DNA of 64,000 nucleotides from assembly GCA_965237415.1 (NCBI GenBank), contig CBDEFM010000002.1:1184001-1248000 (forward strand), read 5' to 3'. Positions 25,527 through 45,640 of this stretch are shown one piece after another. Origin of the DNA: Alphaproteobacteria bacterium. Lineage in GTDB: Bacteria; Pseudomonadota; Alphaproteobacteria; UBA828. The translations under genes and the position numbers were made by a program. The notes below the pieces were generated by a model. That model made no database searches. It worked only from the letters and a program-made list of their open reading frames with translations, and was not told the DNA's origin. Numbering within the stretch: position 1 is the first letter of the stretch; each line of letters opens with the position of its first letter.

Positions 25527-25576
25527 GGGACGATCATGGGCACGCGCGCCCGACCTGTGCACCGCACCATGGTCCG
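25527..25576 (-). promoter_or_regulatory. Putative activator-dependent late promoter, copy 1 (lysis cassette)
   Basis: CGGACCATGGTGCG (25576-25563) - 24 nt - CATGAT - 6 nt - ATG 25526. Confidence 0.75.
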
Positions 25577-25709
25577 GTGCTTTGCCGCTCACGGCAGCCG
25601 GCCTGCGGCCGGCGCCTCCGCGAGGGCGCCGCAGGAGCGGCGGGCCGCGGTCGCGGCCTATCGCGAGCCCGTCAAAGACGGACTCGCTCTAGCTAGGGTA
25701 GCACCGGCG

Positions 25710-26258
25710 TCAGTCGACGAGCCATTTGGTGCGCCAGAACGCGCGCATGTCGAGCGCCATACTGGGGCCGACGACATCGGGTGTGGCGCCGACCGCTGCT
25801 CGATGCTCCGGGCCTGCGGGGCGCGTATCGGCGCCTTCCCAGGGCAGCGGACCCTGCCAGACGATCTTGTCCCCGATCGCGTAGATGGCGCAGTCGGGCC
25901 GGGCGGCGGGATGAGCCTGCGCGATCCTCTCGCGGCAGCGCTCGAGCGCCGGATACCTGTAGTGGACATCCCTGATCGGACGGGCCGAGACATGGTCGAG
26001 GATATGGCAGCCGAGGGTGCCGCAGTAGACGTACCAGCCGCCCCGCCCGTTGCGGTCGAGAGCGAGCACGGCATAGCCGCTTCTCGCATGGCGCAGATAG
26101 TCGCCCCACCACGCCGTGAACCAGGCCGGCGCCTCCGCGTGCAGATCGTCGGCGGAGGCGGCGGTGGCCCGTATCCGCTGGCCTTCGATGTGGGTGGGCG
26201 CTGTGCACGCCGCGAGCAGGGCCGCCGCCAGGACGAGGATCAGCGCCGCGCGGGGCAT
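25710..26258 (-). CDS. Lipoprotein translationally coupled to the repressor gene
   Basis: Lipobox LLAAC; TGATG overlap with the repressor stop; Cys pattern AL..C...C.IYA.G..IVW. Confidence 0.65.
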   Translation of the reverse strand: MPRAALILVLAAALLAACTAPTHIEGQRIRATAASADDLHAEAPAWFTAWWGDYLRHARSGYAVLALDRNGRGGWYVYCGTLGCHILDHVSARPIRDVHYRYPALERCRERIAQAHPAARPDCAIYAIGDKIVWQGPLPWEGADTRPAGPEHRAAVGATPDVVGPSMALDMRAFWRTKWLVD

Positions 26259-27172
26259 CACTCGAAGGTCCGCGAGGCCCAGCGCACCTCGCCCACCACC
26301 TCCGCCTCTGGGGGCCAGGGCACCGGCTCCCAGGACGGGTGATCGCTGACGAGGAACCACTGCCGCCCGCGCCGCTCCAGGCGCTTCACAACCAAGCCCT
26401 CGTCCGTGGTGACCACGAAGATGCGGCCGGTGCGGCGGCGGGTGCGGGTACGGTCCACCAGAATCTTGGCGCCGGCAGGGAGCGTCGGCTCCATGGACTC
26501 GCCCCGCACCGAAATGACCACGCAGAGCGTCGGGTCGATGCCATGGCCGTCGAGCCAGTCGCGGCGGAACCAGACCGGCCCCTTGACCGGCGCCTCGTCG
26601 AGATTGACCGCGCCGCCGCCCGCCGCGGCTTCGATCTCGCGCGTCCCCACCGAGCGCGCGCCGGGGGTCACGCCATCCTCGTTGGCCGCCGCGACGGGCC
26701 TTGCGTCGGCGTTGGCAAAGCCCACCGCCGGCGCCGGCCGCAGCTCCCCCGGAATTGGATCGCCGCCGGCGTCCGCGACCAGCCGCACCAGCGTCTGCAC
26801 CGCGCCCTCGAGGCCCAACAGAGGCACCGCCTCGTAGGGCGCGGCCTGCGATGCGTCGTTCCAACCGGGCGCCGGCGGTTCCGACAAAGCCCCGCCTGCC
26901 GCAGCACGGGCCGCGCCATCCCCGTCGTCCTCACCGTCGGCACGCACGCCGGCGGACGGGCCGATCGAAAGCGTCAACCCGAGGGCGGCGCAGATCTCGG
27001 CCGCGCGGTCCACCGAGGGCGCCTGCTCTCGCGTGGGATCGAGAATCCCGCGCAGCGTCCAGGGCCTGAGCCCGTGGGCGGCTTCGAAGCGCCGCGCGCC
27101 CACGCCGGCCGCCGTCAGGGCCTCGCGCACGGCGCGGCGGATTTGCTCGCTGGGTCGAGTCGGACTCGGCAT
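26258..27172 (-). CDS. Phage CI-like repressor: N-terminal HTH plus C-terminal S24 peptidase
   Basis: APSVDRAAEICAALGL HTH segment; AAAGGG cleavage site; VRGESMEPT (Ser) and LVVKRL (Lys); VVGEV.W terminus. Confidence 0.88.
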   Translation of the reverse strand: MPSPTRPSEQIRRAVREALTAAGVGARRFEAAHGLRPWTLRGILDPTREQAPSVDRAAEICAALGLTLSIGPSAGVRADGEDDGDGAARAAAGGALSEPPAPGWNDASQAAPYEAVPLLGLEGAVQTLVRLVADAGGDPIPGELRPAPAVGFANADARPVAAANEDGVTPGARSVGTREIEAAAGGGAVNLDEAPVKGPVWFRRDWLDGHGIDPTLCVVISVRGESMEPTLPAGAKILVDRTRTRRRTGRIFVVTTDEGLVVKRLERRGRQWFLVSDHPSWEPVPWPPEAEVVGEVRWASRTFE

Positions 27173-27246
27173 GTGCACAATATAGCACATCCTTCTATGC
27201 ATGAAAGTGCTTGATTCTATCATGCTCGATCATGCATATATGTGTG
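27173..27246. promoter_or_regulatory. Divergent repressor/Cro switch region
   Basis: 74-bp AT-rich island; minus strand TGcTATATT extended -10 six nt before repressor ATG; plus strand TTGATT-18-CATATA six nt before ATG 27247; repeated ATGCAT/GTGCAC palindromes. Confidence 0.6.
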
Positions 27247-27552
27247 ATGGTGCACAGTGACCGGCTGCTCATCGCCCTGATCCGCTCATACGCGGCGGCG
27301 CGCGGCATCTCCGTCTCCTACGCCTCGCGCCTGCTCACCGGCAGCGGCGACACGGTGGATCGCGTCACCGCCGGCGCCAGCATCACCGCGCGCCGGGCCG
27401 AGACCATCCTGCGCCGCGCCTCGCAGCGCTGGCCCGACGGCCGCGCCTGGCCCACCGACATTCCGCGCCCGGCGCCTCAAGGGGAGTACGACCAAGGGGC
27501 AACGACGACGCCGAGCGTTCCCGAACCCGGCGACAAGAAACAAGAGACATGA
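27247..27552 (+). CDS. Cro/Ner-like small DNA-binding protein
   Basis: Divergent from repressor; Y..A.GIS.S..SR..G.G and WP....WP.DIPRP pattern seen in alphaproteobacterial phage Cro-like proteins. Confidence 0.7.
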   Translation: MVHSDRLLIALIRSYAAARGISVSYASRLLTGSGDTVDRVTAGASITARRAETILRRASQRWPDGRAWPTDIPRPAPQGEYDQGATTTPSVPEPGDKKQET

Positions 27553-27565
27553 AAGGGAGAAGCAG

Positions 27566-28108
27566 ATGACCGCACCTGCGGCGGCGCCAATTTCGATGGA
27601 GGACATCGTCGCCCTCGCGAGGGCCTTCGCGGCGGCGCGCGCGGCGACGGAGGCGCTGGCCGAGGACATCAAGGCGCTGCAGCGCAAGGCCTTGCGAAGC
27701 CGCCTTCGCGCGCTCCGCACCCGGATCGGCGAACAGGCGGCGTCGGAGGAGGCATTGCGTGCCGCGATCCTGGCCCGGCCCGACCTCTTCGTCAGACCGC
27801 GCACCGTCGCGGTGGACGGCATCAGGTTCGGGCTTCGCAAGCAGCCGGGCAGCGTTTCGGTGGGCGACGAGGCGCAGGCGATCAGTCGGCTGCGCGAGCT
27901 CTTCCCGAACCGGGCCGTGGGGCTGATCCGCGTCAAGGAATCCCTCGACCGTGCGGCGCTCCGCAAGTTTCCGGCGGCCGAGCTCGCGCAGATCGGCGTC
28001 ACCATGGAGAAGGCGACGGATGAGGTCGCCATCGCCGCTGCATCCGGCGATCTCGACCGGGTTGTCGCCGCCCTGCTCGACGACGCCGCACACATGGAAG
28101 CGGCATGA
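27566..28108 (+). CDS. Mu Gam-like host-nuclease inhibitor family protein
   Basis: N-terminal coiled coil, then LF..PRT..V.GI.FGLRK.PG, IRVKESLDR.AL, L..IGV. Confidence 0.7.
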   Translation: MTAPAAAPISMEDIVALARAFAAARAATEALAEDIKALQRKALRSRLRALRTRIGEQAASEEALRAAILARPDLFVRPRTVAVDGIRFGLRKQPGSVSVGDEAQAISRLRELFPNRAVGLIRVKESLDRAALRKFPAAELAQIGVTMEKATDEVAIAAASGDLDRVVAALLDDAAHMEAA

Positions 28109-28267
28109 GGGGCGGAAGAGTCGGCGGCGCGGAACACGTGGCGAGCCGGGCCGCGCGCGCCCGCGCCGAACGCCTGTGGCACGAAACTGTCGCGCGCCCA
28201 GGCGCGCCCGAGAGCAATGTTGCGCGGCCCTGCACGCCTGCGAACGATTTGAGCGCAGCGAGAAACC

Positions 28268-28310
28268 CCCACCTCACCCTGGCCCTCTCCTCCCCGCCGG
28301 GAGGAGAGGG
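28268..28310. repeat. REP-like palindrome (CCTCACCC...CCCTCTCC/GGAGAGGG type)
   Basis: Perfect 12-bp stem CCCTCTCCTCCC (28283-28294), loop CGCC, GGGAGGAGAGGG (28299-28310). Confidence 0.75.
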
Positions 28311-28407
28311 AGAAAAAGCTGTCACCGCCCACGTTCCCTCTCCGCCCCCCAGCGCCGCAAGGCGCGAGAGCCAAGTGAGCGGAGCGAACGCCCGGCGCCT
28401 GAGGGAG

Positions 28408-28941
28408 ATGGAAAGAGTGGCGGAAAGGGACAGGGAGAGGCGGGGGACGACAAACGACCCTCCCCTCCCCAACGACCCCGCGACGCGCAAGCTGCGGGCG
28501 CTCTGGATCAGCGCGTTTCACCTGGGCCTGACCCAGGACCGCTCGGACGGCGCGCTCGTAGCCTGGCTCCGCCGCCAGACGAACCTCGACTCCGACACCT
28601 GCCTGACCGCCGACGGTCTCGACCGCGCCGTTCAGCCGTTGGAGGCCTGGCTCGCGCGCGCCGCAGGCGTGGACTGGCGGCCGCACCTCTCCCTCGACCG
28701 GAGCGGGCGGGTGCGGGAGACCCGCCGCCCCCGAGCGCGGGTGTTGGAGGCCCAATGGCGCCTGCTCCACCGCCAGGGGCGGGTGCGGATTGGGAGCCAC
28801 GCGGCGCTTGGCGCCTACGCCGCCCGCTTCGCCGGCCTCGGCCGCGCCGACTGCCACCTCGCGCTCAGCGACGCCCAGTCCGACGCCCTGATCCGCCACC
28901 TCGGCAAATGCATCCGCGCGGCAGGCAAGGGCCATGGCTGA
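28408..28941 (+). CDS. Mu GemA/gp16-like regulatory protein (C-terminal half of the family)
   Basis: RKLRALW...LG..DRSD.AL.AW.RRQT...L.AWLAR motif; GAGGGAG RBS before ATG 28408 (ORF is open from 28105). Confidence 0.65.
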   Translation: MERVAERDRERRGTTNDPPLPNDPATRKLRALWISAFHLGLTQDRSDGALVAWLRRQTNLDSDTCLTADGLDRAVQPLEAWLARAAGVDWRPHLSLDRSGRVRETRRPRARVLEAQWRLLHRQGRVRIGSHAALGAYAARFAGLGRADCHLALSDAQSDALIRHLGKCIRAAGKGHG

Positions 28942-29281
28942 TGTCGCGCCCCTCCCCGGCGTGCTGGAGGAGATCGCGGACATCGCGGGCCGGCCGACCG
29001 CGATCGCGATCGCGCTCGCCTGGGGCGGTCGCGAGGTCCACATCCCGAAGCCGCTTCATCTGGCGCGCCACCCCGACCACCCCCTCGCCCGCCTGCTGGA
29101 GGCCGAGGGAACGGCGCTCAAGGTCTCGGACTACCTCGGCGGAAGCTGCATCTACCTGCCGCGGGCCCGACGCGCCTGCGCCCTTCACCTCGCCGCCGCC
29201 GGCGCGACGCCCGCCGAGGTCGCCGCGCGCCTCGGGCTCTCCCCCAGCGCCGCCAGGCGATACATCAGGGGAGCGCCTTAG
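28934..29281 (+). CDS. Mor/C-like transcriptional activator
   Basis: LPGVL.EIA..AG...A..IA..WGG.EVHIPK, GG..IYLP and a C-terminal HTH (EVAARLGLS..AARRY); follows gemA as in Mu-like phages. Confidence 0.75.
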   Translation: MADVAPLPGVLEEIADIAGRPTAIAIALAWGGREVHIPKPLHLARHPDHPLARLLEAEGTALKVSDYLGGSCIYLPRARRACALHLAAAGATPAEVAARLGLSPSAARRYIRGAP

Positions 29282-29538
29282 GGACGCCCGGTGCGACGGG
29301 AACACAAGCAAGCGGCGGGACAAGCGCCGGGCGCATGAGTGATATGCTTTGGGGGCGGACTGTCCGGCGTTGCACGGCCGCCGTGCCATGACCACATCAC
29401 GGGTGGCGGCGCCCGGCCCGCATCCCCGCGAGGGAGGGGCCGCGCCGCCGCAGATTCAACAGAGGGCCACGCGCGGACGATCGGTCCATCGAGCGGCAGC
29501 CACCGGAGCCCGGTTAGAATAGGAAAGGGTACGTCGTC

Positions 29539-30033
29539 ATGCCCCAGTCATTGCACCCCACGAAGATCGACATTGCCGACAACACACGCGCCGCGATGGT
29601 CGAGCTGCTCAACGCGCGCCTCGCCGACGCGGTGGACCTCGCGACCCAGATGAAGCAGGCCCACTGGAACGTGAAGGGCCCCTCCTTCATCGCCCTGCAC
29701 GAGCTCTTCGACGCCATCCACGTGGCCGTTCAGGGCCACGTCGACAACCTGGCGGAGCGCATCACGGTGCTGGGCGGCACCGCGCGCGGCACGGCTCAGG
29801 TCGCAGCGGCGGACTCGGGCCTCCCCGCCTATCCGCTGGAAATCACAGCGGGCGCCGATCATGTGGAGGCGGTGAGCATCGCGCTCGCCGCCTTCGGCAA
29901 GGGCATCCGCGCCGCCATTGCCGAGGCCGGCGAAGCCGGCGATGCCGACACCGAAGACCTCTTCGTCGAGGTCTCGCGCGACATCGACAAGAACCTCTGG
30001 CTGGTCGAGGCCCACGCGCAGTCGCAGCGCTAG
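29539..30033 (+). CDS. dps: DNA starvation/stationary phase protection protein Dps
   Basis: KQAHWNVKGPSFIALHELFD, D.LAERI..LGG, DK.LW.VEAH. Confidence 0.95.
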   Translation: MPQSLHPTKIDIADNTRAAMVELLNARLADAVDLATQMKQAHWNVKGPSFIALHELFDAIHVAVQGHVDNLAERITVLGGTARGTAQVAAADSGLPAYPLEITAGADHVEAVSIALAAFGKGIRAAIAEAGEAGDADTEDLFVEVSRDIDKNLWLVEAHAQSQR

Positions 30034-30044
30034 ACAGAGTTGCT

Positions 30045-30074
30045 CCAGGGCGCTCGTGGCGAAGAGCGCCCTGG
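30045..30074 (+). terminator. Hairpin downstream of dps
   Basis: CCAGGGCGCTC-8 nt-GAGCGCCCTGG 11-bp stem; no clear U-tract. Confidence 0.45.
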
Positions 30075-30287
30075 GCGGCGCGGTAAAAGTTACAAAAAGG
30101 GTGGCGGGTGCCTACAAAACGAAGCCAATTTCGCGTAGCACCATGATTAACGAACATAAAATATAGATTTTCGCTCGAAGCCCTCCCCCATCGGGACGCC
30201 GTGCCGGCGGCAAAGACCGGTTGACTCGTCGGCGCCCGATGCGTCAGGGTTTTACCCATAGTGAAATGCGGGGGCGCCTCTCGGGGG

Positions 30288-30953
30288 ATGGCCAAGAGCT
30301 CGGCGAAGGCACGGCCGGCGGAGACGGACGCCCCCTTGGGGAAGCGGCTGCGCGACCGCCGCCAGCAGCTCGGACTGACGCTCAAGGAGGTGGCCAACGG
30401 CGCCGGCCTCTCGGTGGGTTTCATCTCTCAGATCGAACGGGGGCTCAACGCGCCCTCTCTGTCATCGCTCGCCGCCATCTCCGGCGTGCTGCGCACCCAC
30501 GTCACCGAGTTCCTGACACAGCCCCGGCCGGATGCGCCCTTCACGCTGATGGGCGAGCGGCGCAGCTTCGCCATCGAGCAGCACGCGCTCCGCTACGAGC
30601 GCATTTCGGCATCCTTCCCCGGCAGCGTTCTCAACGGCGTCATCATCCACAAGCCGCCGGGGCATCGCTCCGAGTGGATCCGGCACGAGGGCGAAGAGCT
30701 TTTCTACATCCTGGAGGGGGCAATCACGGTAGAGACCGAGGACGAGAGCACCGTGCTCGAGGCCGGCTCCTCCATCCATTTCAAGTCGACGCGACGGCAT
30801 TCGAGCTGGAACCACGGCACGTCGCCGGCCGTGATCCTGCATGTGTGCACATCGGATCTGTTCGGCGACCAGAGCAAGCGGCCGCAAGCGGCGGACGATG
30901 CCAGACCGTCGCAGGCGGCCGAAACCGAGGATTGCGACAAGGGAGAACCATGA
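30288..30953 (+). CDS. XRE-family HTH plus cupin transcriptional regulator
   Basis: LTLKEVA..AGLSVGFISQIERG..PSL; HEGEE.FYILEG, H...N cupin motifs. Confidence 0.9.
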   Translation: MAKSSAKARPAETDAPLGKRLRDRRQQLGLTLKEVANGAGLSVGFISQIERGLNAPSLSSLAAISGVLRTHVTEFLTQPRPDAPFTLMGERRSFAIEQHALRYERISASFPGSVLNGVIIHKPPGHRSEWIRHEGEELFYILEGAITVETEDESTVLEAGSSIHFKSTRRHSSWNHGTSPAVILHVCTSDLFGDQSKRPQAADDARPSQAAETEDCDKGEP

Positions 30954-30954
30954 C

Positions 30955-32547
30955 ATGAGAGCACTACTGAAATTGCTGTCGGCAGCCTCGCTGGTGGCGG
31001 CCTTGGGCGCGGTGCCCCAGATCGTTCAGGCCGGCGGCGTGCTGCGCCTCGACGAGGTCGCGGTCGGCGAGCTCGACCCGGCCAAGGCGTCGGACTACGC
31101 CGATTCCATCCTGATGTTCAACGTCTACGACACCCTCGTCATCCCGCAGCAGGGCGCGCCCGGTCACGATCCGCATCTGGCCGCGAGCTGGTCTGGCGAA
31201 GGGACGAGCTTCACCTTCACCCTGCGCGATGACGTGAAGTTCCAGAGCGGCAATCCGCTCACCGCCGACGATGTAGTCTTCTCGCTCGACCGCATGAAGA
31301 CCATCGGCCACGGGCTCTCCTACCTGTTCGTGAGCGTGCAGGGCGCCGAGGCGCTGGACGCCCACACCGTACGCTTCGATCTTTCCGAGCCCTATGCGCC
31401 CTTCGTCTCGTCGCTGGTGCGGCTCCCCATCGTCGACAAGCAGCTCGTCATGGCCAATCTCGGCGAAGGCGAGGGCGAGATGGGGGACTGGGGCCAGGCC
31501 TTCCTCTCGCAGAACGGGGGCGGGTCGGGCGCCTATCGGGTGGTCTCCCACAACCCGCAGGACGAGACGGTGATGGAGAAGAGCGCCGACTACTTCCTGC
31601 CCATCGCCGAAGCGGCGCCGGATACGGTGCGGCTTCGCTACGGGCTCGAGGCGGCGACGGTGCGCACGCTCATCGCCCAGGGCGAGCATGACATCTCCTC
31701 GCAGTGGGTGCCACCGGAGGTGCTCCGCGCGCTTTCCGAGGGCGGCGCGCAGCTCCTCACCGAGGGCGGCGTGACCGGCTTCTATATGAAGTTGAACACG
31801 ACCAAGCCGCCGCTCGACGACGTGCACTGCCGCCTTGCGCTGGCCAAGGCCTTCGACTACGAGGGGGGCATCAAGATCATCGCGGTCACCGACGAAGTCT
31901 CGCAGGGGACGCTGTCGACGGGCGCGATCCCCGCCGCGATGCTGGGCGCCAACCCGCGGGAGAAGGCGCAGACGCGCGACCTCGACGCGGCACGGCAACA
32001 TCTGGCCGATTGCCGCTACTCGCCGGACGACTTCACCCTGGGGCTCACCTGGATTGGCGAGGTGCCGCTGGAAGAACGCTTCGCGCTCCTCATGCAGGCG
32101 AACTTCTCGGAGATCGGCATCAACTCCGAAATCAGGCGGGTGCCGTGGGCGCTCTTCGCCGAGCAGGTATCGAACGCCGAGACCTCGCCCCACGTCTCGC
32201 AGGTCTATGTCACCGCGGTGACCGGCGATTCCGATACGCTGCTCTACGGCATGTACCACTCCAGCGCGGCCGGGACGTGGCAATCGCCCGAACACCTGAA
32301 TGACGCCGAGGTGGACCGCCTGCTGGAAGCCGGGCGCACGGGGGCGACGCCGGAGGCCCGGGCGGACGCCTATTCGGCGCTCAACGACAGGCTGATAGCG
32401 ATTTCGCCCACCATCTACGCCCACGACTCGCTATCGGTCTTCGCGGCGTCCAACCGGGTCAAGGTGCCGGCGCTGAGCGACCCGGCCAAGGCCTTCGGGC
32501 TCGACAGCTTCGGCTTCAGCTTCCGCCTCATGGAAATGACCGAGTAG
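30955..32547 (+). CDS. Peptide/nickel-type ABC substrate-binding protein (family 5)
   Basis: Signal peptide; LDPA, NVYDTLV, FTLRDDVKF.SGNPLTADDVVFS. Confidence 0.92.
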   Translation: MRALLKLLSAASLVAALGAVPQIVQAGGVLRLDEVAVGELDPAKASDYADSILMFNVYDTLVIPQQGAPGHDPHLAASWSGEGTSFTFTLRDDVKFQSGNPLTADDVVFSLDRMKTIGHGLSYLFVSVQGAEALDAHTVRFDLSEPYAPFVSSLVRLPIVDKQLVMANLGEGEGEMGDWGQAFLSQNGGGSGAYRVVSHNPQDETVMEKSADYFLPIAEAAPDTVRLRYGLEAATVRTLIAQGEHDISSQWVPPEVLRALSEGGAQLLTEGGVTGFYMKLNTTKPPLDDVHCRLALAKAFDYEGGIKIIAVTDEVSQGTLSTGAIPAAMLGANPREKAQTRDLDAARQHLADCRYSPDDFTLGLTWIGEVPLEERFALLMQANFSEIGINSEIRRVPWALFAEQVSNAETSPHVSQVYVTAVTGDSDTLLYGMYHSSAAGTWQSPEHLNDAEVDRLLEAGRTGATPEARADAYSALNDRLIAISPTIYAHDSLSVFAASNRVKVPALSDPAKAFGLDSFGFSFRLMEMTE

Positions 32548-32596
32548 ACTTCCCACGGCGGGGCGGGCGTTCTCACTGCCTGCCCCGCCCCGCTGC

Positions 32597-32642
32597 CAAG
32601 CCCGGAACTCTCACCATGGTCTTGGTGAGAAATCCGGGCTAG
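32597..32642. repeat. Collapsed MITE: two TIRs head-to-head forming a hairpin
   Basis: CAAGCCCGGAACTCTCACCA-TGGTCT-TGGTGAGAAATCCGGGCTAG between the binding-protein and permease genes. Confidence 0.75.
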
Positions 32643-32651
32643 AGGCGGGCC

Positions 32652-33677
32652 GTGACGCCGACGCTTCTCATCTTTGTGCGGCGCGTCGGGATCTCCTGCA
32701 TCGTCCTGCTGGGGGTCTCGATGCTGATCTTCGCGATCGCCCGGATCATTCCGGGCGATCCTGCACGCATTGCGCTCGGGCCGAGCGCGACCGACGAGTC
32801 GGTTGCGAAACTCAGGGCGGAGCTCCGCCTCGACGAGCCGATCGCGGTCCAGTACGGGCACTTCCTGAGCGATCTCGCGCAGGGCGACCTCGGCATCTCG
32901 CTCTACACCAACCGGCCGGTGGTGGTGGATATCGCGCAGTTTCTGCCGGCCACTCTCGAGCTCATCTTCGTCGCCGGCGCGATGATGATTGCGATCGGGC
33001 TTCCGCTCGGCATCACATCGGCGCGCTACCGAGGCACCTGGATCGACAATTCCATCCGCGTGGTCACGTTGCTCGGGGTCTCGGCGCCGAGCTTCGTCTG
33101 GGCCATTATCCTGATGCTGCTGTTCGCGTTCTTTCTGCCCCTCTTCCCCATCGCCGGCCGCATCACGGACACGTACAGCATCGAGGCGGTCACGGGCTTC
33201 CTGCTGCTCGACACATTGATTGCGGGCAAACCCGGCGCCTTCGGCAACGCCGCCTGGCACATCATCCTGCCGGCCTTTGCGCTGGCGCTTTCCGGCATCG
33301 GGCAGACGGCGCGGCTCACGCGCGCCAATATGGTGGAGACCTACGACAAGCCCTTCATCGAGATGGCGCGCTCCTATGGCGTGCCGGATCGCCGCATCGC
33401 GCGCCGCTACGCCTTCAAGCCGTCGCTGATCCCGTCGCTCACGATCATCGGGCTCGATTTCGCGGCCATGCTGGGCAACGCCTTTCTCGTCGAGGCGGTG
33501 TTCGCCTGGCCCGGCCTCTCGCGCTACGGCGTCTCGGTCATCCTGCGCAAGGACCTGGATGCGATCGTCGGCACCGTGCTCGTCATCTCGGCCACCTTCC
33601 TCATCATGAACCTCATCGTCGATGTGCTGGTCACGTTCATCAACCCGCGCATCCGCTACGCGCGAGCGCGCTCATGA
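32652..33677 (+). CDS. Peptide ABC permease, DppB-like
   Basis: PGDPA, GDLGISL, PATLEL, ARLTR..M, VEAVF.WPG. Confidence 0.92.
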   Translation: MTPTLLIFVRRVGISCIVLLGVSMLIFAIARIIPGDPARIALGPSATDESVAKLRAELRLDEPIAVQYGHFLSDLAQGDLGISLYTNRPVVVDIAQFLPATLELIFVAGAMMIAIGLPLGITSARYRGTWIDNSIRVVTLLGVSAPSFVWAIILMLLFAFFLPLFPIAGRITDTYSIEAVTGFLLLDTLIAGKPGAFGNAAWHIILPAFALALSGIGQTARLTRANMVETYDKPFIEMARSYGVPDRRIARRYAFKPSLIPSLTIIGLDFAAMLGNAFLVEAVFAWPGLSRYGVSVILRKDLDAIVGTVLVISATFLIMNLIVDVLVTFINPRIRYARARS

Positions 33678-34507
33678 GGCGGGCCGTCGCGATCCTGGCC
33701 TCGAACCCGCTGTCGCTGCTGGGGCTGATCCTGGTCGGCATCATCCTCATCTGCGCGGTCTTCGCGGACTTCATCGCCCCCTTCCCCGAGCATCGCGGCG
33801 CGGTCGTGGACTTCGCCAACTTCAACCAGCCGCCCAAGTGGCCGCACCTCATGGGGACCGATCTGGTCGGCCGCGATCTCTTCAGCCGCGTCATCTACGC
33901 CTATCGGATATCGCTGATCCTGGGCGCGGTGGTGCTCGGCATCGCGGTCCCCGTCGGGGTCACGGTCGGCCTGATCGCGGGCTACTTCGACCGCTATACC
34001 GAGTTCGCGCTGATGCGCGTGACCGACGTCTTCCTCTCCGTCCCGCCGCTGGTGCTCGCCATGTCGATCATGGGCGTGCTGGAGCCGACGCTGATCAACG
34101 GGATGCTGGCGGTCACCGCGATGTGGTGGCCGTGGTACGCGCGGCTCGTCTACAACATGACGCGGGGGGAGAAGGAGGAAGGCTACGTGCTCGCCGCCGA
34201 GGTGATCGGCGCCTCGCGCCTGCATGTGATGTTCCGCGAGATTCTGCCGAACTGCTTCCCCTCCATCGTCACGAAGATGACGCTCGACCTCGGCTTCATC
34301 ATCCTCATCGCCTCCTCGCTCTCCTTCCTCGGCCTCGGCGTGCAGCCACCGACGCCCGACCTCGGCTCGATGGTGGCCGACGGCGCGAAGTACCTGCCCG
34401 ATTCCTGGTGGCTCACCATCTTCCCGAGCCTCGCCATCCTGATCGCGGTGTTCGGCTTCAACCTCATCGGTGACGGCTTGCGCGAGCTCTTCGGGGCCGA
34501 CCAATGA
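33674..34507 (+). CDS. Peptide ABC permease, DppC-like
   Basis: H.MGTD.VGRD.FSR, LSFLGLGVQPPTPD.G, FNLIGDGLR. Confidence 0.92.
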   Translation: MRRAVAILASNPLSLLGLILVGIILICAVFADFIAPFPEHRGAVVDFANFNQPPKWPHLMGTDLVGRDLFSRVIYAYRISLILGAVVLGIAVPVGVTVGLIAGYFDRYTEFALMRVTDVFLSVPPLVLAMSIMGVLEPTLINGMLAVTAMWWPWYARLVYNMTRGEKEEGYVLAAEVIGASRLHVMFREILPNCFPSIVTKMTLDLGFIILIASSLSFLGLGVQPPTPDLGSMVADGAKYLPDSWWLTIFPSLAILIAVFGFNLIGDGLRELFGADQ

Positions 34508-36194: not shown

Positions 36195-36273
36195 CTGAAG
36201 CTGCGCGCGTCATCTCCGCTCTGCGCTACCGCCGCGCTTCGTATTCTTTTCCTTTGACCGTGGGAGGCCATTA

Positions 36274-38349: not shown

Positions 38350-38368
38350 ACGAGACGGCGGCAGCACC

Positions 38369-40066
38369 ATGACAACGATGACCACGATCACGAACGATCC
38401 GATCACGCTTGAGATCATCCAGAATTCGCTGCAGAGCGCGGCCGACGAGATGTTCGCGGCCATGAAGAAGACTGCGATGAGCTCGATCATCTACGAGGTG
38501 CTCGACATGGGCACCGGGATCACCGACGCGAAGGGCGAAATTGCTTGCTCGGGCGCCGGCATTCCGGCCTTCGTCGGCGTGCTCGACAAGGCGGTGACGG
38601 TGATCGTCGAGAAGTTCGACGACCCCGGCGAGGTCGAGCCCGGCGACGTCTTCGTCACCAACGACCCCTATTACGGCGGGGTGACGCACCTCAACGACAT
38701 CGTCGTCGTCATGCCGGTCTTCGTCGAAGACCGCATCATCGCCTGGACCGCGAACATCGCGCACAACTCGGACGTGGGCGGTATGGCGCCGGGCTCGCTC
38801 ACCGGCGAGGCGACGGAGATCTTCCAGGAAGGGCTGCGGCTGCCCGCCATCAAGATGATCTCCAGGGGCGAGCCGATCCAGCCGGTGCTGGAGATCATCA
38901 AGGTCAACTCGCGCATGCCCGACGTGCTCGAAGGCGATGTCTGGGCCGCGATCGCCTCGGTGCGCATCGGCACCGCCCGCCTCGCGGAGATCGCCGAGAA
39001 GTATGGCGCCGCCACCTTCGAGCAGGCGATGACGTCGTTCATGGACTATGGCGAGCGGGTGTCGCGCTCGGCGCTCACGTCGCTTCCCAAGGGCACCTTC
39101 ACGCTCGCCGAGGAACAGGACGACGGCCAGGTCTTCAACGTCACGATCACGATCGCCGACGACGAATTCGTCGTCGACCTGCGGGACAACCCGGATCAGG
39201 CGACGAACCCGGTCAACACCAGCCGGGACGGCGTGATGGTGTCGGCGCAGATGATCTTCAAGTCGCTGACCGACCCCTATTCGCCGTGCAACGCCGGCTC
39301 CTTCCGCCCGATCCGCCTGCTGACGCGCGAGGGCTCGGTGTTCCACGCCGAGGAGCCCGCGCCCGTCGGCTTCTACTACGAGATCGACCTGCGCGCGTAC
39401 GACCTGATGTGGCGCTGCCTCGCGCAGCACATGCCGGAGCGCCTGGCCGCCGGGCACTTCGCCTCGGTGTGCGGCACCTTCATCGGCGGCATCCACCCCG
39501 ACACCGGCCGCCAGTACACGATCATCGAGCCGCAGCTCGGCGGCTGGGGCGGCCGCGAGGGGATGGACGGGAACAACGCCATGTTCTGCGGCTTCCACGG
39601 CGAGACCTTCAACTGCCCGGCCGAGATCAACGAGGCGCGCAACGGGCTCTACGTCGACCAGATGGCGCTCAACGTCCAGCCAGGCGGCGAGGGCCAGTTC
39701 ACCGGCGGGCGCGGCATCGTCATGGACTACCGAGTCCGCGCCAACGACGGCTTCCTGACCATAGGCTACACGCGCTCGAAGTTCCCGGCCTGGGCGCTCG
39801 ACGGCGGGCACGAAGGCTCCCCCAACTACGTCGACTTCATCCCGCGCGAGGGGGAGCGCCAGCGCTTCGCCTTCGTCTCCGGCCTCAAGACGCAGAGGGA
39901 TGATGTGATCCGCGTCGTCACCGGCAACGGCGGCGGCTTCGGCGATCCGAAGAAGCGCGATCCCGACCGCGTGCGCCGGGACGTGAGGAACGGCCTCATC
40001 AGCCCAGAGCGGGCGCGGGAGGTCTACGGCGTGACAATCGATCCAGACAACGGGAGGACCGCATGA
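38369..40066 (+). CDS. Hydantoinase B / oxoprolinase family subunit
   Basis: DPITLEII, NDPYYGGVTHLND, HNSDVGG, GNGGGFGDP. Confidence 0.93.
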   Translation: MTTMTTITNDPITLEIIQNSLQSAADEMFAAMKKTAMSSIIYEVLDMGTGITDAKGEIACSGAGIPAFVGVLDKAVTVIVEKFDDPGEVEPGDVFVTNDPYYGGVTHLNDIVVVMPVFVEDRIIAWTANIAHNSDVGGMAPGSLTGEATEIFQEGLRLPAIKMISRGEPIQPVLEIIKVNSRMPDVLEGDVWAAIASVRIGTARLAEIAEKYGAATFEQAMTSFMDYGERVSRSALTSLPKGTFTLAEEQDDGQVFNVTITIADDEFVVDLRDNPDQATNPVNTSRDGVMVSAQMIFKSLTDPYSPCNAGSFRPIRLLTREGSVFHAEEPAPVGFYYEIDLRAYDLMWRCLAQHMPERLAAGHFASVCGTFIGGIHPDTGRQYTIIEPQLGGWGGREGMDGNNAMFCGFHGETFNCPAEINEARNGLYVDQMALNVQPGGEGQFTGGRGIVMDYRVRANDGFLTIGYTRSKFPAWALDGGHEGSPNYVDFIPREGERQRFAFVSGLKTQRDDVIRVVTGNGGGFGDPKKRDPDRVRRDVRNGLISPERAREVYGVTIDPDNGRTA

Positions 40067-40872
40067 AAGCCAACGCCCCCCTCAAGCTGATGTATCTCAA
40101 CCCGGTCGGCACCGAGGCCTACGACGCCGTCTTCGCCGACATGGCACGCACCTACAAGCTGCCGGGCACGGAGGTCCACATCGCCTGCCTGGCGGACGCG
40201 GGCGGTAGCTTCACCCACATCGAGTACCGCTCCTACGAGACCATCGTCTCGCGCGGCATTATCAGGGCGACACGCCAGGCCGCGCGCGAGGGCTTCGACG
40301 CGCTCGCCATCGGCTGCTTCTACGACACGGCGCTGCACGATGCCCGCGAGATCTCGGGCGAGATGGTCGTGACCGCGCCCTGCCTTGCTTCGTGCGAAAT
40401 CGCGGCGAGCCTCGCCAACCGCTTCGGCATCATCGTGGGGCGGCGCAAGTGGGTGAACCAGATGAACGCCGTCGCCCGCGAGCACGGCTACGGCGAGCGC
40501 CTCAGCGGCTTCTATCAGGTCGAGCTCGGCGTCAACGACTTCCAGACCGATCACGCGGAGACCGAGCGGCGGCTGGTCGCGGCCGGGAAGCGCGCGGTCG
40601 AAGAGGACTACGCCGAAGCGCTGATCCTCGGATGCACGCTGGAGATCGGCTTCTACCGCGAGATCGAGAAGGCCGTCGGCGTGCCGGTGATCGACCCCTC
40701 CATCGCAGCGCTCAAGCGCGCCGAGTATGCCGCGCAGCTCAAGCGCCAGTGCGGCTGGGTGCCGAGCCGCATGTGGTCCTGCGAGCCGCCGCCCGAGGAG
40801 GAGATCGCGCGCTTCGGCGGCTTCGATGAAGGCGAGGCCTTCGGCCAGCGCCTGGTCGTCGAGGCGGAGTGA
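40063..40872 (+). CDS. Asp/Glu/hydantoin racemase family protein
   Basis: LNPV, IGCFYD and ILGCT catalytic cysteines, VPVIDP. Confidence 0.9.
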   Translation: MKANAPLKLMYLNPVGTEAYDAVFADMARTYKLPGTEVHIACLADAGGSFTHIEYRSYETIVSRGIIRATRQAAREGFDALAIGCFYDTALHDAREISGEMVVTAPCLASCEIAASLANRFGIIVGRRKWVNQMNAVAREHGYGERLSGFYQVELGVNDFQTDHAETERRLVAAGKRAVEEDYAEALILGCTLEIGFYREIEKAVGVPVIDPSIAALKRAEYAAQLKRQCGWVPSRMWSCEPPPEEEIARFGGFDEGEAFGQRLVVEAE

Positions 40873-40897
40873 CGGCGCTCGGCCCTCGCCGGTCTGC

Positions 40898-41071
40898 TTA
40901 GTCCGCCCCGTCTGCCACGGGATCGAAATCGGCCTTGGGCGCGCGGCAGTCGGGACAGCACCAGTCGTCCGGCAGATCCTCGAAGGCTGTGCCGGGCGGT
41001 GTGTCGCGCTGCGCCTCGCCCTTGGCAGGGTCGTAGACGTAGCCGCACCAGCGACACCGATAGCGCGTCAT
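40898..41071 (-). CDS. Rubredoxin
   Basis: [11 protein letters not shown]...[15 protein letters not shown]. Confidence 0.92.
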
Positions 41072-41135
41072 GGCGACCGTCGCCGACAAATGACGGCGTG
41101 CGACCGGCGCAACCGGCCGCGCGCCGTTACCTCAA

Positions 41136-42305
41136 TCAGTGAATGCCGAGCTTCTCGGCAGCCATCTGCGTTCCCTTGATGCGGGACTCGATCTTCTGAA
41201 ACGCCACGTCGCGGGCGTAGTCCGGCGAGCCGTGGTTGGGCTTCACGTCGATGCTGAAGGGCGAGAAGCCGCAATCGTCGGTTGAGGCGATCTGCTCCTT
41301 CGGCAGGTGATTGGCGGCCGCGACGAGCTGATCGCACACTTCCTCGGGCGATTCGACCCGCGGGTTCTGCGGGTTGACGACGCCGATAAAGGCCATCTGC
41401 GTGACGCCGTTCGCGTCGGTTCGGATGCTGGCCGCGATGTCCTTGTAGACCTGCTCCTGGTTCCGCTCGCTCTTGAACTGGATCATGAAGTAGCCGGCAT
41501 TCAACTGGAACATGCTCGGCAGCAGGTCGTTGTAGGGCACATCGGCGCTGTGCACGGAATCGCAGTCGCCGCCGGGGCAGGTGTGGATGCCGATGTTCAC
41601 CCGCTCCTCCGCCGTGAAGCGGTCGAGCACCCCGTTGATGAGATCGATGAAGTGGGGAAGCATCTCGCGGCCGGTCCAGGGGTTGCGCGAATCGTTGCGG
41701 CAGGAGAGCCGGCCTTCGGTGAAGTCGATCGAGACCCTGACGGCGCCGGCAGCGAAGGCGGCGCGCACGTCCTTCTCGCACTCGTCGATCAGGTCGGCCT
41801 CGAACGTCGCGCGAGAGTAGCCCTCGATCTCCTCATCGAGCGGATAGAGCAGCGCCAGCATCGAGGGCGCGATGACCGCCTGCTTCATCGGCTTGGTCGC
41901 AGACTTGATCGAGAGCTTCAGCGAATCCGCGGCGAAGCTCTTGTAGCGGAAGGGGCCGCCGGTGAGCAGCGGCAACTGGCGATTGTGGCCGTCGGCGAAG
42001 ATGGCGAAATACTGGCCGCCGCCCCCCAGATGGTCGGCAAGGCCCGTCCCCGCCAGCGTGTCGGTGATCGGATAGGTCGCGAAGCTCGACCAGCGTTGCT
42101 CGCCGTCGGAGACGATGGGCGAGCCGGTCGCCTCCATGCGCGCGATCGAATCGCGCACGGCTTCCTCCTGCTCCGCCTCCAGGTCGGCCTTCGAAATCTC
42201 GCCCGCGTCGTAGGCGGCATACGCGGCCTGGAGCTTGGAGGGCCGGGGCAGCGAACCCACGGGTTCTGTCGGAATTCCGGTGGCAGCGCGCGGATCGTAG
42301 GTCAT
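41136..42305 (-). CDS. Cobalamin-independent methionine synthase II family protein (core MetE C-terminal domain only)
   Basis: TEPVGSLPRP, SDGEQR, HTC and DDCGFS zinc ligands; GGAGA RBS. Confidence 0.85.
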   Translation of the reverse strand: MTYDPRAATGIPTEPVGSLPRPSKLQAAYAAYDAGEISKADLEAEQEEAVRDSIARMEATGSPIVSDGEQRWSSFATYPITDTLAGTGLADHLGGGGQYFAIFADGHNRQLPLLTGGPFRYKSFAADSLKLSIKSATKPMKQAVIAPSMLALLYPLDEEIEGYSRATFEADLIDECEKDVRAAFAAGAVRVSIDFTEGRLSCRNDSRNPWTGREMLPHFIDLINGVLDRFTAEERVNIGIHTCPGGDCDSVHSADVPYNDLLPSMFQLNAGYFMIQFKSERNQEQVYKDIAASIRTDANGVTQMAFIGVVNPQNPRVESPEEVCDQLVAAANHLPKEQIASTDDCGFSPFSIDVKPNHGSPDYARDVAFQKIESRIKGTQMAAEKLGIH

Positions 42306-42414
42306 CGGTGGTCTCCCTGTATCTGGCGATGTGTTCCGGCATGGTCCCATATCAGCGGCGCGACACAAAATACGGTGCTGGTGCGACGCGGCCGACGTCC
42401 CCATCTGCGTGCCC

Positions 42415-42464
42415 CGCACCTTGGTGCGATGGGCAGCGCTGCCGGCTGTCGTCATGGTACGGGC
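42415..42464 (+). promoter_or_regulatory. Putative activator-dependent late promoter, copy 2 (terminase)
   Basis: CGCACCTTGGTGCG (42415-42428) - 24 nt - CATGGT - 6 nt - ATG 42465. Confidence 0.75.
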
Positions 42465-43862
42465 ATGGCCGGCCCCGACTCTGACGACCGAGAGACCATG
42501 AATTGGGAGCGAGCGCGCCCTACCCTCCTCCCCTACCAGGCCCGCTGGTTGGCGGACGGTGCCGGCCTCAAGGTGATCGAGAAGGCGCGGCGCGTGGGCA
42601 TCTCCTGGGCGGAAGCCTACGACGCGGTGATGCACGCGGGCGCCGCCGGCAGCGGCAACGTCTACTACCAGGCCTACAACTGGGAGATGACCCGGGGCTT
42701 CATCGCGGATTGCGCCGACTGGGCGCGGACGCTGCAGTTGGTGGCCGGCTCTCTCGGCGAAACTCTGATCGACGAAGGCCAGCGCATCCAGGCCTTTCGC
42801 ATCGCCTTCGCCTCGGGCCGCGAGATCGTCGCCATGACCTCGGCACCCCGCGCCTTCCGCTCCAAGGGCAGGCCCGGCGACCTCGCCATCATCGACGAGG
42901 CGGCCTTCGTCGACGATCTCGGTCAGGTGCTCAAGGCAGCGATGGCCTTCCGCGTCTGGGGCGGGCGGGCGCACGTCATCAGCACCCACAACGGCGAGGC
43001 CAATCCCTTCGCCGCGCTCTGCCGCGACCTGCGCGAGGGCGCGCGGCCCGGCTCTTTGCATCGCATCACGCTGGAGGAGGCACTGGCGGAGGGACTCTTC
43101 CGCAAGATCGCTGCGGCCCAGGGCCGGCCCTGGTCGGCGGAGACCGAGGCCGCCTGGGAAGCCGAAATCAGGGCGGAGTACGGTACTTATGCGTCAGAAG
43201 AGCTCGACTGCATCCCCGCTGCCGGCGGCGGCGCCTGGCTCGGCTGGGAAGCGATCCGCACCTGCGAAGACCGCGCCGCCGGCGATCCCGCCGCCTTCGC
43301 CGGCGGTTCCACCACTATCGGCGTGGACGTGGCGAGGCGCCGCGATCTCTGGGTCGCCGCGGTGCTGGAGCAGGTGGGCGACGTGCTCTGGCTGCGCGAA
43401 CTGGTGGTGCGACAGGGCATCCCCTTCAGCGCGCAGCGGGCGATTGTGGGTGACTTGGCCGCGCGCTATCGGCCCACCCGCATCGCCGTGGACCAGACCG
43501 GCATGGGCGAGGCCGTGGTGGAGCAGCTGCAGGAGGACCTGGGCCGGACCACCGTCGAGGGCGTGTTGATGACCGGGCCGCGCCGGCTCGATGCGGCGAC
43601 GGCGCTGCGGGAAGCGGTGGAGGACCGCCGCCTCCGCATTCCGCCCGACGGCGATCTGAGGCGCGACCTCCACGCCGTCCGCGCCGAGGCCGGGCCGACC
43701 GGGGCGCCGCGCCTCATGGCGGAGCGCTCGGGCACCGACGGCCACGCCGACCGCTTCTGGGCTCTGGCGCTCGCCTGCACCGCCGCCCGCACCGCGGCCA
43801 CCGCGACCATCGAGGGCGCTACCGCCGGCCCCCGCGCCGCCACCCTCGCGGGCTTCTATTGA
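42465..43862 (+). CDS. Mu gp28-like terminase large subunit
   Basis: LLPYQ..W, EKARRVGISW (Walker A variant), IIDEAAF (Walker B), ISTHNG..NPF, GVDVAR.RDL and GHADRFWA nuclease acidic residues. Confidence 0.9.
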   Translation: MAGPDSDDRETMNWERARPTLLPYQARWLADGAGLKVIEKARRVGISWAEAYDAVMHAGAAGSGNVYYQAYNWEMTRGFIADCADWARTLQLVAGSLGETLIDEGQRIQAFRIAFASGREIVAMTSAPRAFRSKGRPGDLAIIDEAAFVDDLGQVLKAAMAFRVWGGRAHVISTHNGEANPFAALCRDLREGARPGSLHRITLEEALAEGLFRKIAAAQGRPWSAETEAAWEAEIRAEYGTYASEELDCIPAAGGGAWLGWEAIRTCEDRAAGDPAAFAGGSTTIGVDVARRRDLWVAAVLEQVGDVLWLRELVVRQGIPFSAQRAIVGDLAARYRPTRIAVDQTGMGEAVVEQLQEDLGRTTVEGVLMTGPRRLDAATALREAVEDRRLRIPPDGDLRRDLHAVRAEAGPTGAPRLMAERSGTDGHADRFWALALACTAARTAATATIEGATAGPRAATLAGFY

Positions 43863-44082
43863 GGGGCGCGCGTCGCGCCCTCTCCGCCCTCGGGCTGCCG
43901 TGGCACGTCATCGGAAATTCTCATTGCCGGCCCAACAAAACGATACTTGTCCCAATACCGCGGCGTTCACATCTCTTGATTGTAGGCCCCACCCGCTGCG
44001 GTGCTGGCTCTGACTGACCCGCCTCACCCGCCGCGCGGCAGGGCTCGAAAGCGAGGATCGCGAAGCGAAGAGGATGCGAGCC

Positions 44083-45426
44083 ATGGCAGACGAGAACGAC
44101 GACACACGCAGAGGCAAGAACGACAGCGAAGCGCAAGAAGGGGATCCGCTTGGGCTGTACGTCGGCAGCCAGGCCGGCGAAACGTTTGACGGCGGCGACG
44201 TCTTCGCTGTCTACGACCTCGCCGGGGGAGCCGACAGGGCGAACTATCGAGGCGGCGACAACGCCTTCCTCCTGGGCGGAAGCGGCGACGACTTCTTGAT
44301 GAGCAACGGCGACGATTTCATCATGGGTGGCAGCGGCGACGACACGATCAATGCCATGGGACGCGAAAGCGTCGTCCGCGGCGGCAGCGGCGACGACACC
44401 ATCCTCGGCACACTCGGAAACGACTGGCTGATCGGCGACGCCGGCGACGACACCATCGACAGCTCCGGCGGAAACGATTTCATCGCCGGCGGCGATGGCG
44501 ACGACCTTCTGTACGGCCGCGGCGGGAACGACTGGGTCATCGGTGGAGCCGGGGACGATCGCATGTCGGGCGGCGACGGCCGCGATATCTTCCATTTCCA
44601 TGCCGACAACGGCCACGACACGATCTTCGACTTCCGCGGCAGCGAGGACATCATCGACCTGACCGGATTCGAGGTGCGGATCACTTGGACGGAGTTGAGC
44701 GCGCGGTTCGCAATCGCGGACAACGGCCGGGACGCGGTAATTGACCTCAGTGGATGGGGCGGCGGAACGATCACGTTGCGCAACGTCAGGCCGGCATACC
44801 TCAGCGAAGACATGTTCTACCTGCCCGATCCCCAGTCCCCCTTGGAGGGCGGGGACGAAGAAGAGGGCTTCTACGTTCCCGGCACCGCCACCTTTGTCGG
44901 TCACCCCGGCGCCGATGCCCTGGTCGCAGACGGACGCGCCGACTTCATCTTCGGCGGCGAGGGCGACGACAGGCTCGACGGTGGCGGCGGCGAGGACTGG
45001 ATCCTCGGCGGCGAAGGCAACGATACGCTCGACGGCAACACTGGCAACGACCGCCTGTTCGGCGGCGAAGGGCGCGACACGCTGGACGGCGGGGAAGGCA
45101 GCGACTGGCTCAGCGGCGGCACCGGCACCGATACGCTGACGGGTGGCACCGGGGCCGACACCTTCGCCTATTTCGCCGGCCATGGAAGCGACACGATCAC
45201 CGACTTCACCGACGGCGAAGACGTGATCGACCTGAGTTCGCTCGACTCCATCTCGGGCTTCGATGACCTGAGCGCGATCCAGCTCGGCTCGTTCGTTGCG
45301 ATCGACCTGGGCGGCCACGGCGGAGGCACCATCGCGCTCGAGAATTTCGATATCGAAGTCCTGGACGAGACGGATTTCGTGTTCTACCAGCCTCCCGTTG
45401 CCGATCCCGCACAGGACGGCATGTAG
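44083..45426 (+). CDS. RTX/hemolysin-type calcium-binding repeat protein
   Basis: Two blocks of GGxGxD nonapeptide repeats, each followed by G.DTI.DF...ED.IDL. Confidence 0.9.
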   Translation: MADENDDTRRGKNDSEAQEGDPLGLYVGSQAGETFDGGDVFAVYDLAGGADRANYRGGDNAFLLGGSGDDFLMSNGDDFIMGGSGDDTINAMGRESVVRGGSGDDTILGTLGNDWLIGDAGDDTIDSSGGNDFIAGGDGDDLLYGRGGNDWVIGGAGDDRMSGGDGRDIFHFHADNGHDTIFDFRGSEDIIDLTGFEVRITWTELSARFAIADNGRDAVIDLSGWGGGTITLRNVRPAYLSEDMFYLPDPQSPLEGGDEEEGFYVPGTATFVGHPGADALVADGRADFIFGGEGDDRLDGGGGEDWILGGEGNDTLDGNTGNDRLFGGEGRDTLDGGEGSDWLSGGTGTDTLTGGTGADTFAYFAGHGSDTITDFTDGEDVIDLSSLDSISGFDDLSAIQLGSFVAIDLGGHGGGTIALENFDIEVLDETDFVFYQPPVADPAQDGM

Positions 45427-45537
45427 CCGGTAGGCGCGGGCTACTTAGGCCCGCGCGACTCTACATTCCGCGCACACGACCCGGTGGGCGTGCGCGCCTG
45501 TCTTACCGCGCGCGGGACCTTTCAGGCCCGCGCGACC

Positions 45538-45587
45538 CGCACCATGGTGCGGTGCACAGGGCGCGCCAGGTCCGCGATGATCGGGCC
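45538..45587 (+). promoter_or_regulatory. Putative activator-dependent late promoter, copy 3 (portal)
   Basis: Perfect palindrome CGCACCATGGTGCG (45538-45551) - 24 nt - GATGAT - 6 nt - ATG 45588; shares 20 identical nt (ACCATGGTGCGGTGCACAGG) with copy 1. Confidence 0.8.
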
Positions 45588-45640
45588 ATGTTGAACGCCC
45601 GATCCTCCGCTTCTCTCCCGACAGCCGGGAGCCACCCCTG

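Follow-up and report, generated by a model that had tools for sequence, protein, structure and literature searches.

The 64,000-nucleotide window analysed here (positions 1,184,001 to 1,248,000, forward strand, of contig CBDEFM010000002.1 in assembly GCA_965237415.1) comes from an alphaproteobacterium of the lineage UBA828 and carries three copies of a palindromic motif, each at the same distance from an ATG and in front of phage-type genes. Overall the motif is probably best explained as a late promoter that belonged to a Mu-like phage, domesticated by an ancestor of the genus, and as judged from its sequence and setting the dyad is very likely a late promoter driven by a Mor/C-like protein that is encoded in the same window. 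The genome of this stretch (G000; 4.75 Mb, 96% complete) was compared with the genomes of relatives, which carry the other G-numbers, and with fetched loci, which carry L-numbers.

The sequence-only reading had placed the dyads at 25576-25563 (minus strand), 42415-42428 and 45538-45551, and their positions, the hexamers 24 nt further on and the ATG codons 6 nt beyond these 6-nt hexamers (24+6+6 spacing) were all verified. The dyad is a near-perfect palindrome of 14 bp with a 4-bp centre. The 14-mer alone, with up to two mismatches, occurs three times in the window against 0.76 expected, a marginal excess reached by 4 of 100 shuffles; the dyad (up to one mismatch) followed by 36 nt and ATG was found in none of 200 shuffled windows. 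Taking the A of the ATG as +1, a placement deduced from the A-11/T-7 pair, puts the dyad at -50 to -37 with its centre at -43.5, and positions 2 and 6 of the hexamer become A-11 and T-7. The earlier statement that there is no consensus -35 stands as regards a consensus hexamer, but a weak -35 (TGCACA, TGGGCA and TGCACA), matching TTGACA at four of six positions, lies exactly 17 bp from the -10 in the three sites. The putative promoters of the window and the candidate activator are as follows.

25563 to 25576, minus strand: lysis-operon promoter dyad, centre -43.5, kept before the DUF5675 gene in G004, G003 and G018
25524 to 25561, minus strand: lysis promoter core, with the weak -35 at 25561-25556, the -10 CATGAT at 25538-25533 and the +1/ATG at 25526
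42415 to 42467, plus strand: large terminase (terL) promoter, with the dyad at 42415-42428, the weak -35 at 42430-42435, the -10 at 42453-42458 and the +1/ATG at 42465
45538 to 45590, plus strand: portal promoter, with the dyad at 45538-45551, the weak -35 at 45553-45558, the -10 at 45576-45581 and the +1/ATG at 45588
28934 to 29281, plus strand: Mor/C-like late activator, the putative reader of the dyad (E=1.2e-13 to phrog_836, annotated as late transcriptional activator; a Pfam Mor score of 26.5 bits, just over the 24.9 cut-off)

The -11 and -7 positions are also conserved where they played no part in finding the sites. Among 68 sites seeded by the dyad and a downstream repeat array (described below), without the use of A-11 or T-7, each of the two bases was present in 63, and when the dyad, -11 and -7 were all masked in site finding, A-11 was present in 51 and T-7 in 50 of the 52 sites. 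In this masked set dyad columns 2-14 were conserved in 44-50 and spacer columns in 21-50 of the 52. Sites picked by an exact 17-mer of the motif in G002, G014, G018 and G006 carry A-11 in 38 and T-7 in 37 of 40 cases, and the A..T pair stands at offset 24 in 101 of 564 dyad matches against 5-28 at other offsets.

At Plys, PI, PP and Pmom, promoters with a -10 and no typical -35, the Mu C protein recognises a 16-bp dyad that has its centre at -43.5 (PMC2582627), the Mor dyad at Pm, with 5-bp arms, is also centred at -43.5 (PMC4390567), and both proteins recruit the polymerase (bioRxiv 2025.05.02.651988). The promoters described here are like these Mu middle and late promoters in the centre at -43.5, the 5-bp arms, the recognisable -10 and the poor -35, and also in that one promoter follows the activator gene and one precedes the protease. 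They are unlike them in dyad sequence, in length (14 bp with a 4-bp centre against 16 bp with 6 in Mu), in their near-perfect symmetry, in starting at AUG and in number, with about 70 chromosomal copies against four phage copies.

The activator and the motif also go together across the genus. A single orthologue of the Mor-like protein (77-97% identity, median dN/dS 0.22) is present in 14 of the 20 genus genomes compared, and the motif co-occurs with it. The exact 17-mer has 7-44 copies in 17 of these 20 genomes, and the same 17 carry Mu gp27; the other three (G012, G015 and G016) gave no match to the motif, gp27, terL, Mor or the capsid, and 20 of 20 genomes outside the genus lack the 17-mer. 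G012, a 15-kb contig 98-99% like genes of G000, is possibly a contaminant. In intact Mu-like prophages a similar dyad comes after the Mor gene (L130, L211, L212 and L015) or before the protease (L205), each time with A..T at the matching offset. L018 has a dyad without T-7, and related dyads were recognised by eye in L014 and L019. Viral sequences gave 25 matches to the 17-mer.

The Mu-like geometry, the dyad beside Mor in relatives and the co-occurrence thus support the proposal of the sequence-only reading that the sites are activator-dependent late promoters read by the Mor/C-like protein, although the binding itself is inferred. Some results count against this assignment of the reader. Of 80 viral terL loci, 19 have a Mor homologue and the full pattern is found in four of them, so that 15 of the 19 fall short of it; the Mor profile matched only generic helix-turn-helix (HTH) domains in the PDB and neither Mu Mor nor C; and a search of the genome with PF08765 gave nothing at E<=0.001. 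It is very unlikely that Mor is a bystander and that the dyad serves a host regulator or merely marks a repeat family as a hairpin: a near-perfect palindrome in dozens of copies and the modest family assignment of Mor would suit such an origin, and the fixed -43.5 geometry, the dyad directly after Mor in intact phages and the absence of the motif both from 20 of 20 genomes outside the genus and from the three members of the genus without terL and Mor argue otherwise. Under the Mor-driven promoter preferred here, the Mor/C-like protein would bind the dyad once CI repression is lifted and recruit the sigma-70 polymerase, and its binding would turn on all the scattered parts of the system together.

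The transcripts would begin at the AUG, which would be either the start of the protein itself or that of a short leader passing ribosomes on to the portal or protease start. The genes and the leader concerned are listed here.

25044 to 25526, minus strand: DUF5675 protein, whose gene opens the lysis operon (PF18925, E=1e-22; phrog_1501), with an endolysin role presumed from its position
42465 to 43862, plus strand: Mu-type large terminase (terL), single copy, dN/dS about 0.25
45588 to 45641, plus strand: putative leaderless leader open reading frame (ORF) of 17 aa, whose TGA overlaps the portal ATG (TGATG)
45641 to 46969, plus strand: Mu-type portal (PF06074, E=7e-87), dN/dS about 0.15, with the C-terminus frameshifted near residue 393

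The leaderless starts proposed earlier hold for the lysis gene and in part for terL, the +1 ATG being in frame with DUF5675 in four of four genomes and with terL in six of ten, and do not hold for the portal and head operons, where the ATG opens a coupled leader peptide. The ATG at 45588 does not start the portal gene, with which it is out of frame, and opens the 17-aa leader, the stop of which overlaps the portal ATG at 45641; the leader is of 17 aa (14 in one genome) and the stop-start overlap is present in all 11 genomes examined. In the head operon the ATG lies one base further, and leaders of 18-58 aa have a stop overlapping the protease start at 14 of 14 loci, while in an intact prophage the protease itself begins at the +1 ATG position. 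Leaderless initiation with translational coupling at the portal and head operons is inferred from this arrangement, and leader-peptide coupling may be a way for a copied promoter to fit genes that have lost their operon.

The motif had been thought to occur only before phage late genes, a view that a genome-wide scan overturned. A 60-bp matrix built from 61 seeds, which were required to have the ATG, found 73 sites in the genome and none in a shuffled contig, and 63 of the 73 head dispersed cassettes; the motif itself has eight exact copies and 50 at up to one mismatch.

One copy of the motif heads each of the scattered operons for lysis, terL, portal, head and short tail. These genes are spread over four or more loci amid host genes, and synteny with the host genes is kept. 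The protease, scaffold and capsid genes run from C2:24625 onward, and those for the neck, tail tube, a 272-aa tape measure (range 256-272 aa), tail tip and fibre from C2:1133183 backward, next to atpH; the motif is present in both head-tail halves, which in most relatives form one contiguous operon. The split (C2:22000-25400 and C2:1132400-1135000) shows an inverted duplication of the promoter and the protease start, and the head half is followed by what we take to be a group II intron-like fragment. A protein family of 96 aa, with 11 matches in the genome including C2:24122-24409, has one copy before the head-operon promoter in most relatives, and an ORF without family match follows the capsid gene in most of them (L141:2726-3688, L136:5331-6902).

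Orthologues of the capsid (92-98% identity) were found in 16, of the portal (84-96%) in 17, two of them partial, and of terL (77-95%) in 15 of the 20 genus genomes, three of the last being broken or partial; all three genes are single-copy. Median dN/dS values against relatives are 0.09 for the capsid, 0.115 for the terminator, 0.15 for the portal, 0.17 for the tail tube, 0.25 for terL, 0.33 for both DUF5675 and Dit and 0.49 for the hub, with dS near that of host genes and a few loci counted twice. By these measures the particle genes are under vertical inheritance and purifying selection. Judged from its gene content the set is not an intact Mu-like prophage, because no transposase B match was found in this genome (nor in G003, G018 or G019), transposase A is represented by weak A-like matches only (26%), and the genes lie at four or more loci. 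In this assembly the head operon is about 1.2 Mb from terL, so that the gene set would not be packaged as a unit. The ancestral order is seen in G003, with a small-terminase gene (terS) between lysis and terL, that terS lacking its N-terminal part. G002 holds an intact Mu-like prophage (G002:C1:174072-213279) of 39.2 kb, which has a target duplication of 5 bp and whose capsid is 81% identical; its order is permuted, tail and head lying left of CI and the right end carrying lysis, terminase, portal and F. Its tail is of contractile type by ORF inspection.

On this gene content the product is rather likely a short-tailed particle that packages host DNA only, that is, a candidate gene transfer agent (GTA). 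As in RcGTA of Rhodobacter capsulatus, head, tail and lysis genes are maintained by the host at several loci, replication genes are lacking and the tape measure is short, and the operon terS of G003 lacks the N-terminal DNA-binding part, as does RcGTA TerS (PMC6854486). Unlike RcGTA, the set has Mu-type portal, capsid and terminase, phage-type Mor/CI control and many solo TerS copies keeping the HTH, each with a repeat array. It is not RcGTA-like (Rhodogtaviriformidae) in sequence, the PF05065 capsid cluster being absent: the HK97 capsid family PF05065 gave no match in the 96% complete genome, where the capsid is phrog_1005 and the portal PF06074. The Mu gpT family likewise gave no match in the genome.

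Several findings tell against a working particle. Neither gene F nor gp26 was found in this genome, nor was the adaptor; the neck is partial and the portal damaged, its tail frameshift amounting to about 12 bases absent from contigs of two DNA runs; and G018 has 23 exact motif matches yet no capsid match. The copy in this genome may be failing or decaying. It is unlikely, though conceivable, that the regulon is defensive or structural and not a GTA: when Mu-like phages invade, the cassettes might act as decoys for their activator or terminase, or else the particles might serve some other role. The missing gene F and the intact Mu-like prophages with similar dyads in the genus would fit such a role; against it, selection maintains the whole range of genes for TerL, portal, capsid, tail and lysis, as fits particles that are filled with DNA and released, and genomes without a transposase B match keep the gene set.

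The dispersed cassettes, about 65 copies in intergenic positions, begin with the promoter, continue with a solo terS, or what is left of it in a short stretch, and end in an array phased at 10 bp. A tandem array follows within 1.3 kb in 63 of the 73 motif sites, and conversely 63 of 66 arrays have a promoter upstream, one of the other three following the tail fibre gene. Mu gp27 (PF11985) matches were found at ten loci, nine over the cut-off, and most other cassettes keep a short stretch like its start; the 17 motif-bearing genus genomes have 1-15 gp27 copies each. In the cassettes the -35 is mostly a 3/6 match to TTGACA. The dinucleotides made of A or T (WW) recur in the arrays with a period of 10 bp (autocorrelation 0.164 at lag 10, 0.033 at lag 5 and 0.01-0.02 at random). 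The array units differ in G002, G014, G019 and G020, such subtypes being carried by short cassettes of G002 and G006 too, and because the units differ the exact array pattern is rare across the genus, matching only 5 of the 20 genomes, including G012. Arrays outside G000 were called by eye, a generic detector having found 11 of 29 solo loci and a loose pattern having matched 87 of 300 random windows; all 19 high-scoring solo terS loci so inspected, from 12 genomes, have the dyad upstream and an array downstream. The solo terS proteins form one group with the G003 operon terS, sister to phage L015, with moderate node support (93/66). An Rfam search gave only a neighbouring tRNA in eight cassette loci. 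A GC-rich hairpin repeat (window ~45507-45537) abuts the portal promoter and many cassettes.

A tentative reading of their sequence is that the cassettes are dispersed packaging starts (pac sites). Packaging starts are proposed because Mu cuts beside its integrated end and the SPP1 pac combines promoter, terS and repeats. In Mu-like phages the first cut is made in host DNA beside the integrated end, followed by headful filling (PMC5557969), and the SPP1 pac has promoters, terS and direct repeats, with the TerS HTHs one DNA turn apart on bendable DNA (PMC4737164). The cassettes are like the SPP1/SF6 pac in bringing promoter, terS and repeats together and in bendable DNA with a 10-bp WW period that matches the TerS HTH spacing (PMC4737164), and unlike it in that SPP1/SF6 have one site per phage, overlapping the terS start, while here the array of the candidate pac comes after terS in about 65 chromosomal copies. 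They are unlike the Mu packaging site in that there is no transposition and there are no TG...CA ends.

The conserved terL has no terS in this genome besides the solo copies. The complex of a solo TerS encoded 170 kb away with the TerL of the window was predicted with a score of 0.69, the best of three controls reaching 0.00; the mark applied to this score is reached by 116 of 157 solved pairs and 2 of 215 mismatched pairs, own alignments being used. The predicted contact lies at the C-terminal helix of TerS, residues 166-184, with contact agreement between runs of at least 56% and a partner predicted local distance difference test (pLDDT) value of 56. The pass may reflect likeness, the pair being of the textbook kind. 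No fold match to the modelled TerS monomer was significant, P74-26 TerS ranking ninth (E=3). In the mechanism proposed, TerS rings would wrap the phased array and recruit TerL via the C-terminal helix, which would lead to headful packaging of the neighbouring host DNA. Mu terminases start from a chromosomal site, and with transposition lost the cassettes would replace many Mu ends, spreading since the DNA beside them would be preferentially packaged. Of the genome, 38% lies within 40 kb and 67% within 80 kb downstream of an array.

Miniature inverted-repeat transposable elements (MITEs) and REP-type (repetitive extragenic palindromic) repeats are intergenic and multicopy, arise as internal-deletion derivatives of a gene-bearing form, and show empty and filled alleles. 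The cassettes resemble them in all these respects, being intergenic (58 of 62 outside crudely called genes) and multicopy, with gene-bearing and deleted forms and both kinds of allele; they are unlike them in that no terminal inverted repeats were found, the gene-bearing form encodes a small terminase and not a transposase, and there is a putative regulated promoter. A selfish or neutral origin, with MITE/REP-like repeats derived from terS and promoter, copied by other machinery and irrelevant to packaging, would leave promoter and particle as proposed; it is as tentative as the pac reading of the cassettes and fits nearly as well. Several facts suit it or weigh against packaging starts. Empty alleles exist and the cassettes are polymorphic; 47 of 62 follow the end of a same-strand gene, and they nest with other repeat families as selfish elements do. 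Selection on solo terS is weak: dN/dS is mostly 0.4-0.5 in copies of the short type, and about 0.7 in those of the long type, where the recognition helix seems to be disrupted. Cassette interiors also diverge faster than their flanks between G000 and G004. No cassette-type array was seen inside the intact prophages fetched, and the repeats at both termini of intact prophages look like transposase sites. What speaks against a selfish origin is that the dyad, A-11 and T-7 of the cassettes are better kept than spacer positions, that the array holds its 10-bp phasing while the unit changes, that terL has no other terS, and that one solo TerS is predicted to bind it. When 20 cassettes of G004 were compared with those of G000, 14 had a flank in common with one of them, four did not and two were unclear. 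At one empty site an 11-bp repeat may surround a composite made up of several repeat families.

GAATC words occur several times in the arrays (for example at C2:1399280-1399330), a form of GANTC, which we take to be the CcrM methylation target in Alphaproteobacteria. The Mu pac lies at about bp 32-54 of the left end, and transduction of mini-Mu is known. GAATC-rich, array-like repeats at both ends of the 39.2-kb G002 prophage and at the L012 end raise the thought that Mu ends, with their transposase sites, left the arrays behind as relics and that the cassettes are mini-Mu moved by helper prophages. This is distinctly unlikely, with the end repeats of G002 and L014 recurring about every 21-22 bp, the cassettes having no TG...CA termini and one array each, and the genome having no Mu transposase B and weak A-like matches only. 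The similar repeats at both G002 prophage ends also make it less likely that the arrays were copied from a terminal pac.

Taken as a whole, the most far-reaching possibility, and a doubtful one, is an independently evolved, Mu-derived GTA that starts packaging at dozens of chromosomal cassettes, each switched by the late activator and spreading itself through biased transfer; some cassettes have their own small terminase and array sequence types vary among them. Known GTAs are thought to package at random. According to two papers, discrete packaging starts are not known for any GTA (PMC6854486, PMC7947584), and literature searches, lacking most subscription papers, found no Mu-derived GTA and no dispersed terS cassettes. 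Such a GTA, if real, would be the first to have defined packaging starts, and a host-encoded, genome-wide analogue of lateral transduction. Mapped starts would predict which genes move, and cassettes driven by packaging would be a selfish route bearing on why GTAs persist.

The motif also offers a compact handle for members of the regulon, including the protein at C2:642565-643500 (L139, L273-L292), which has an N-terminal STGPRT...NALSHG stretch; its gene lies downstream of the same dyad and carries another dispersed repeat, the second of its kind, on the 3' side. This repeat, the AAAACGAAGCCAATT motif, lies near the 3' end of the gene at 20 of 20 loci in 12 genomes, and the gene is amplified in G003 and G018. 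The protein (C2:642643) gave no family match and fell in unnamed Atlas clusters only, commonly of Acidobacteriota; it may resemble small terminases. The AAAACGAAGCCAATT motif is itself dispersed: besides window 30116-30131 it stands at 17 further places in G000, in most cases with neither gene nor promoter, and one copy follows a dyad promoter at C2:956733, which parallels the terS/array design.

The remaining phage-type genes of the window are listed below.

24141 to 24584, minus strand: DUF2730-like protein (PF10805 below cut-off; phrog_736)
24524 to 25051, minus strand: holin-like membrane protein (phrog_6637; weak phrog_3427 holin)
25710 to 26264, minus strand: 184-aa protein without family match, adjoining CI in G004, G002 and G003
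26258 to 27223, minus strand: CI-like repressor with S24 domain, by family matches
27211 to 27552, plus strand: small protein divergent from CI in the Cro/Ner position, named by position only (phrog_7669)
27566 to 28108, plus strand: Mu Gam-like protein; transposase A and B precede Gam in intact relatives and are missing here
28105 to 28941, plus strand: GemA (PF06252)

A Dps/ferritin-like gene (window 29539-30033) lies beside Mor in four of four relatives examined, and in G003 and G018 it stands between Mor and the lysis promoter. Between terL and the portal the window also encodes a protein with RTX calcium-binding repeats (44074-45426), and in several relatives the terL and portal genes are adjacent.

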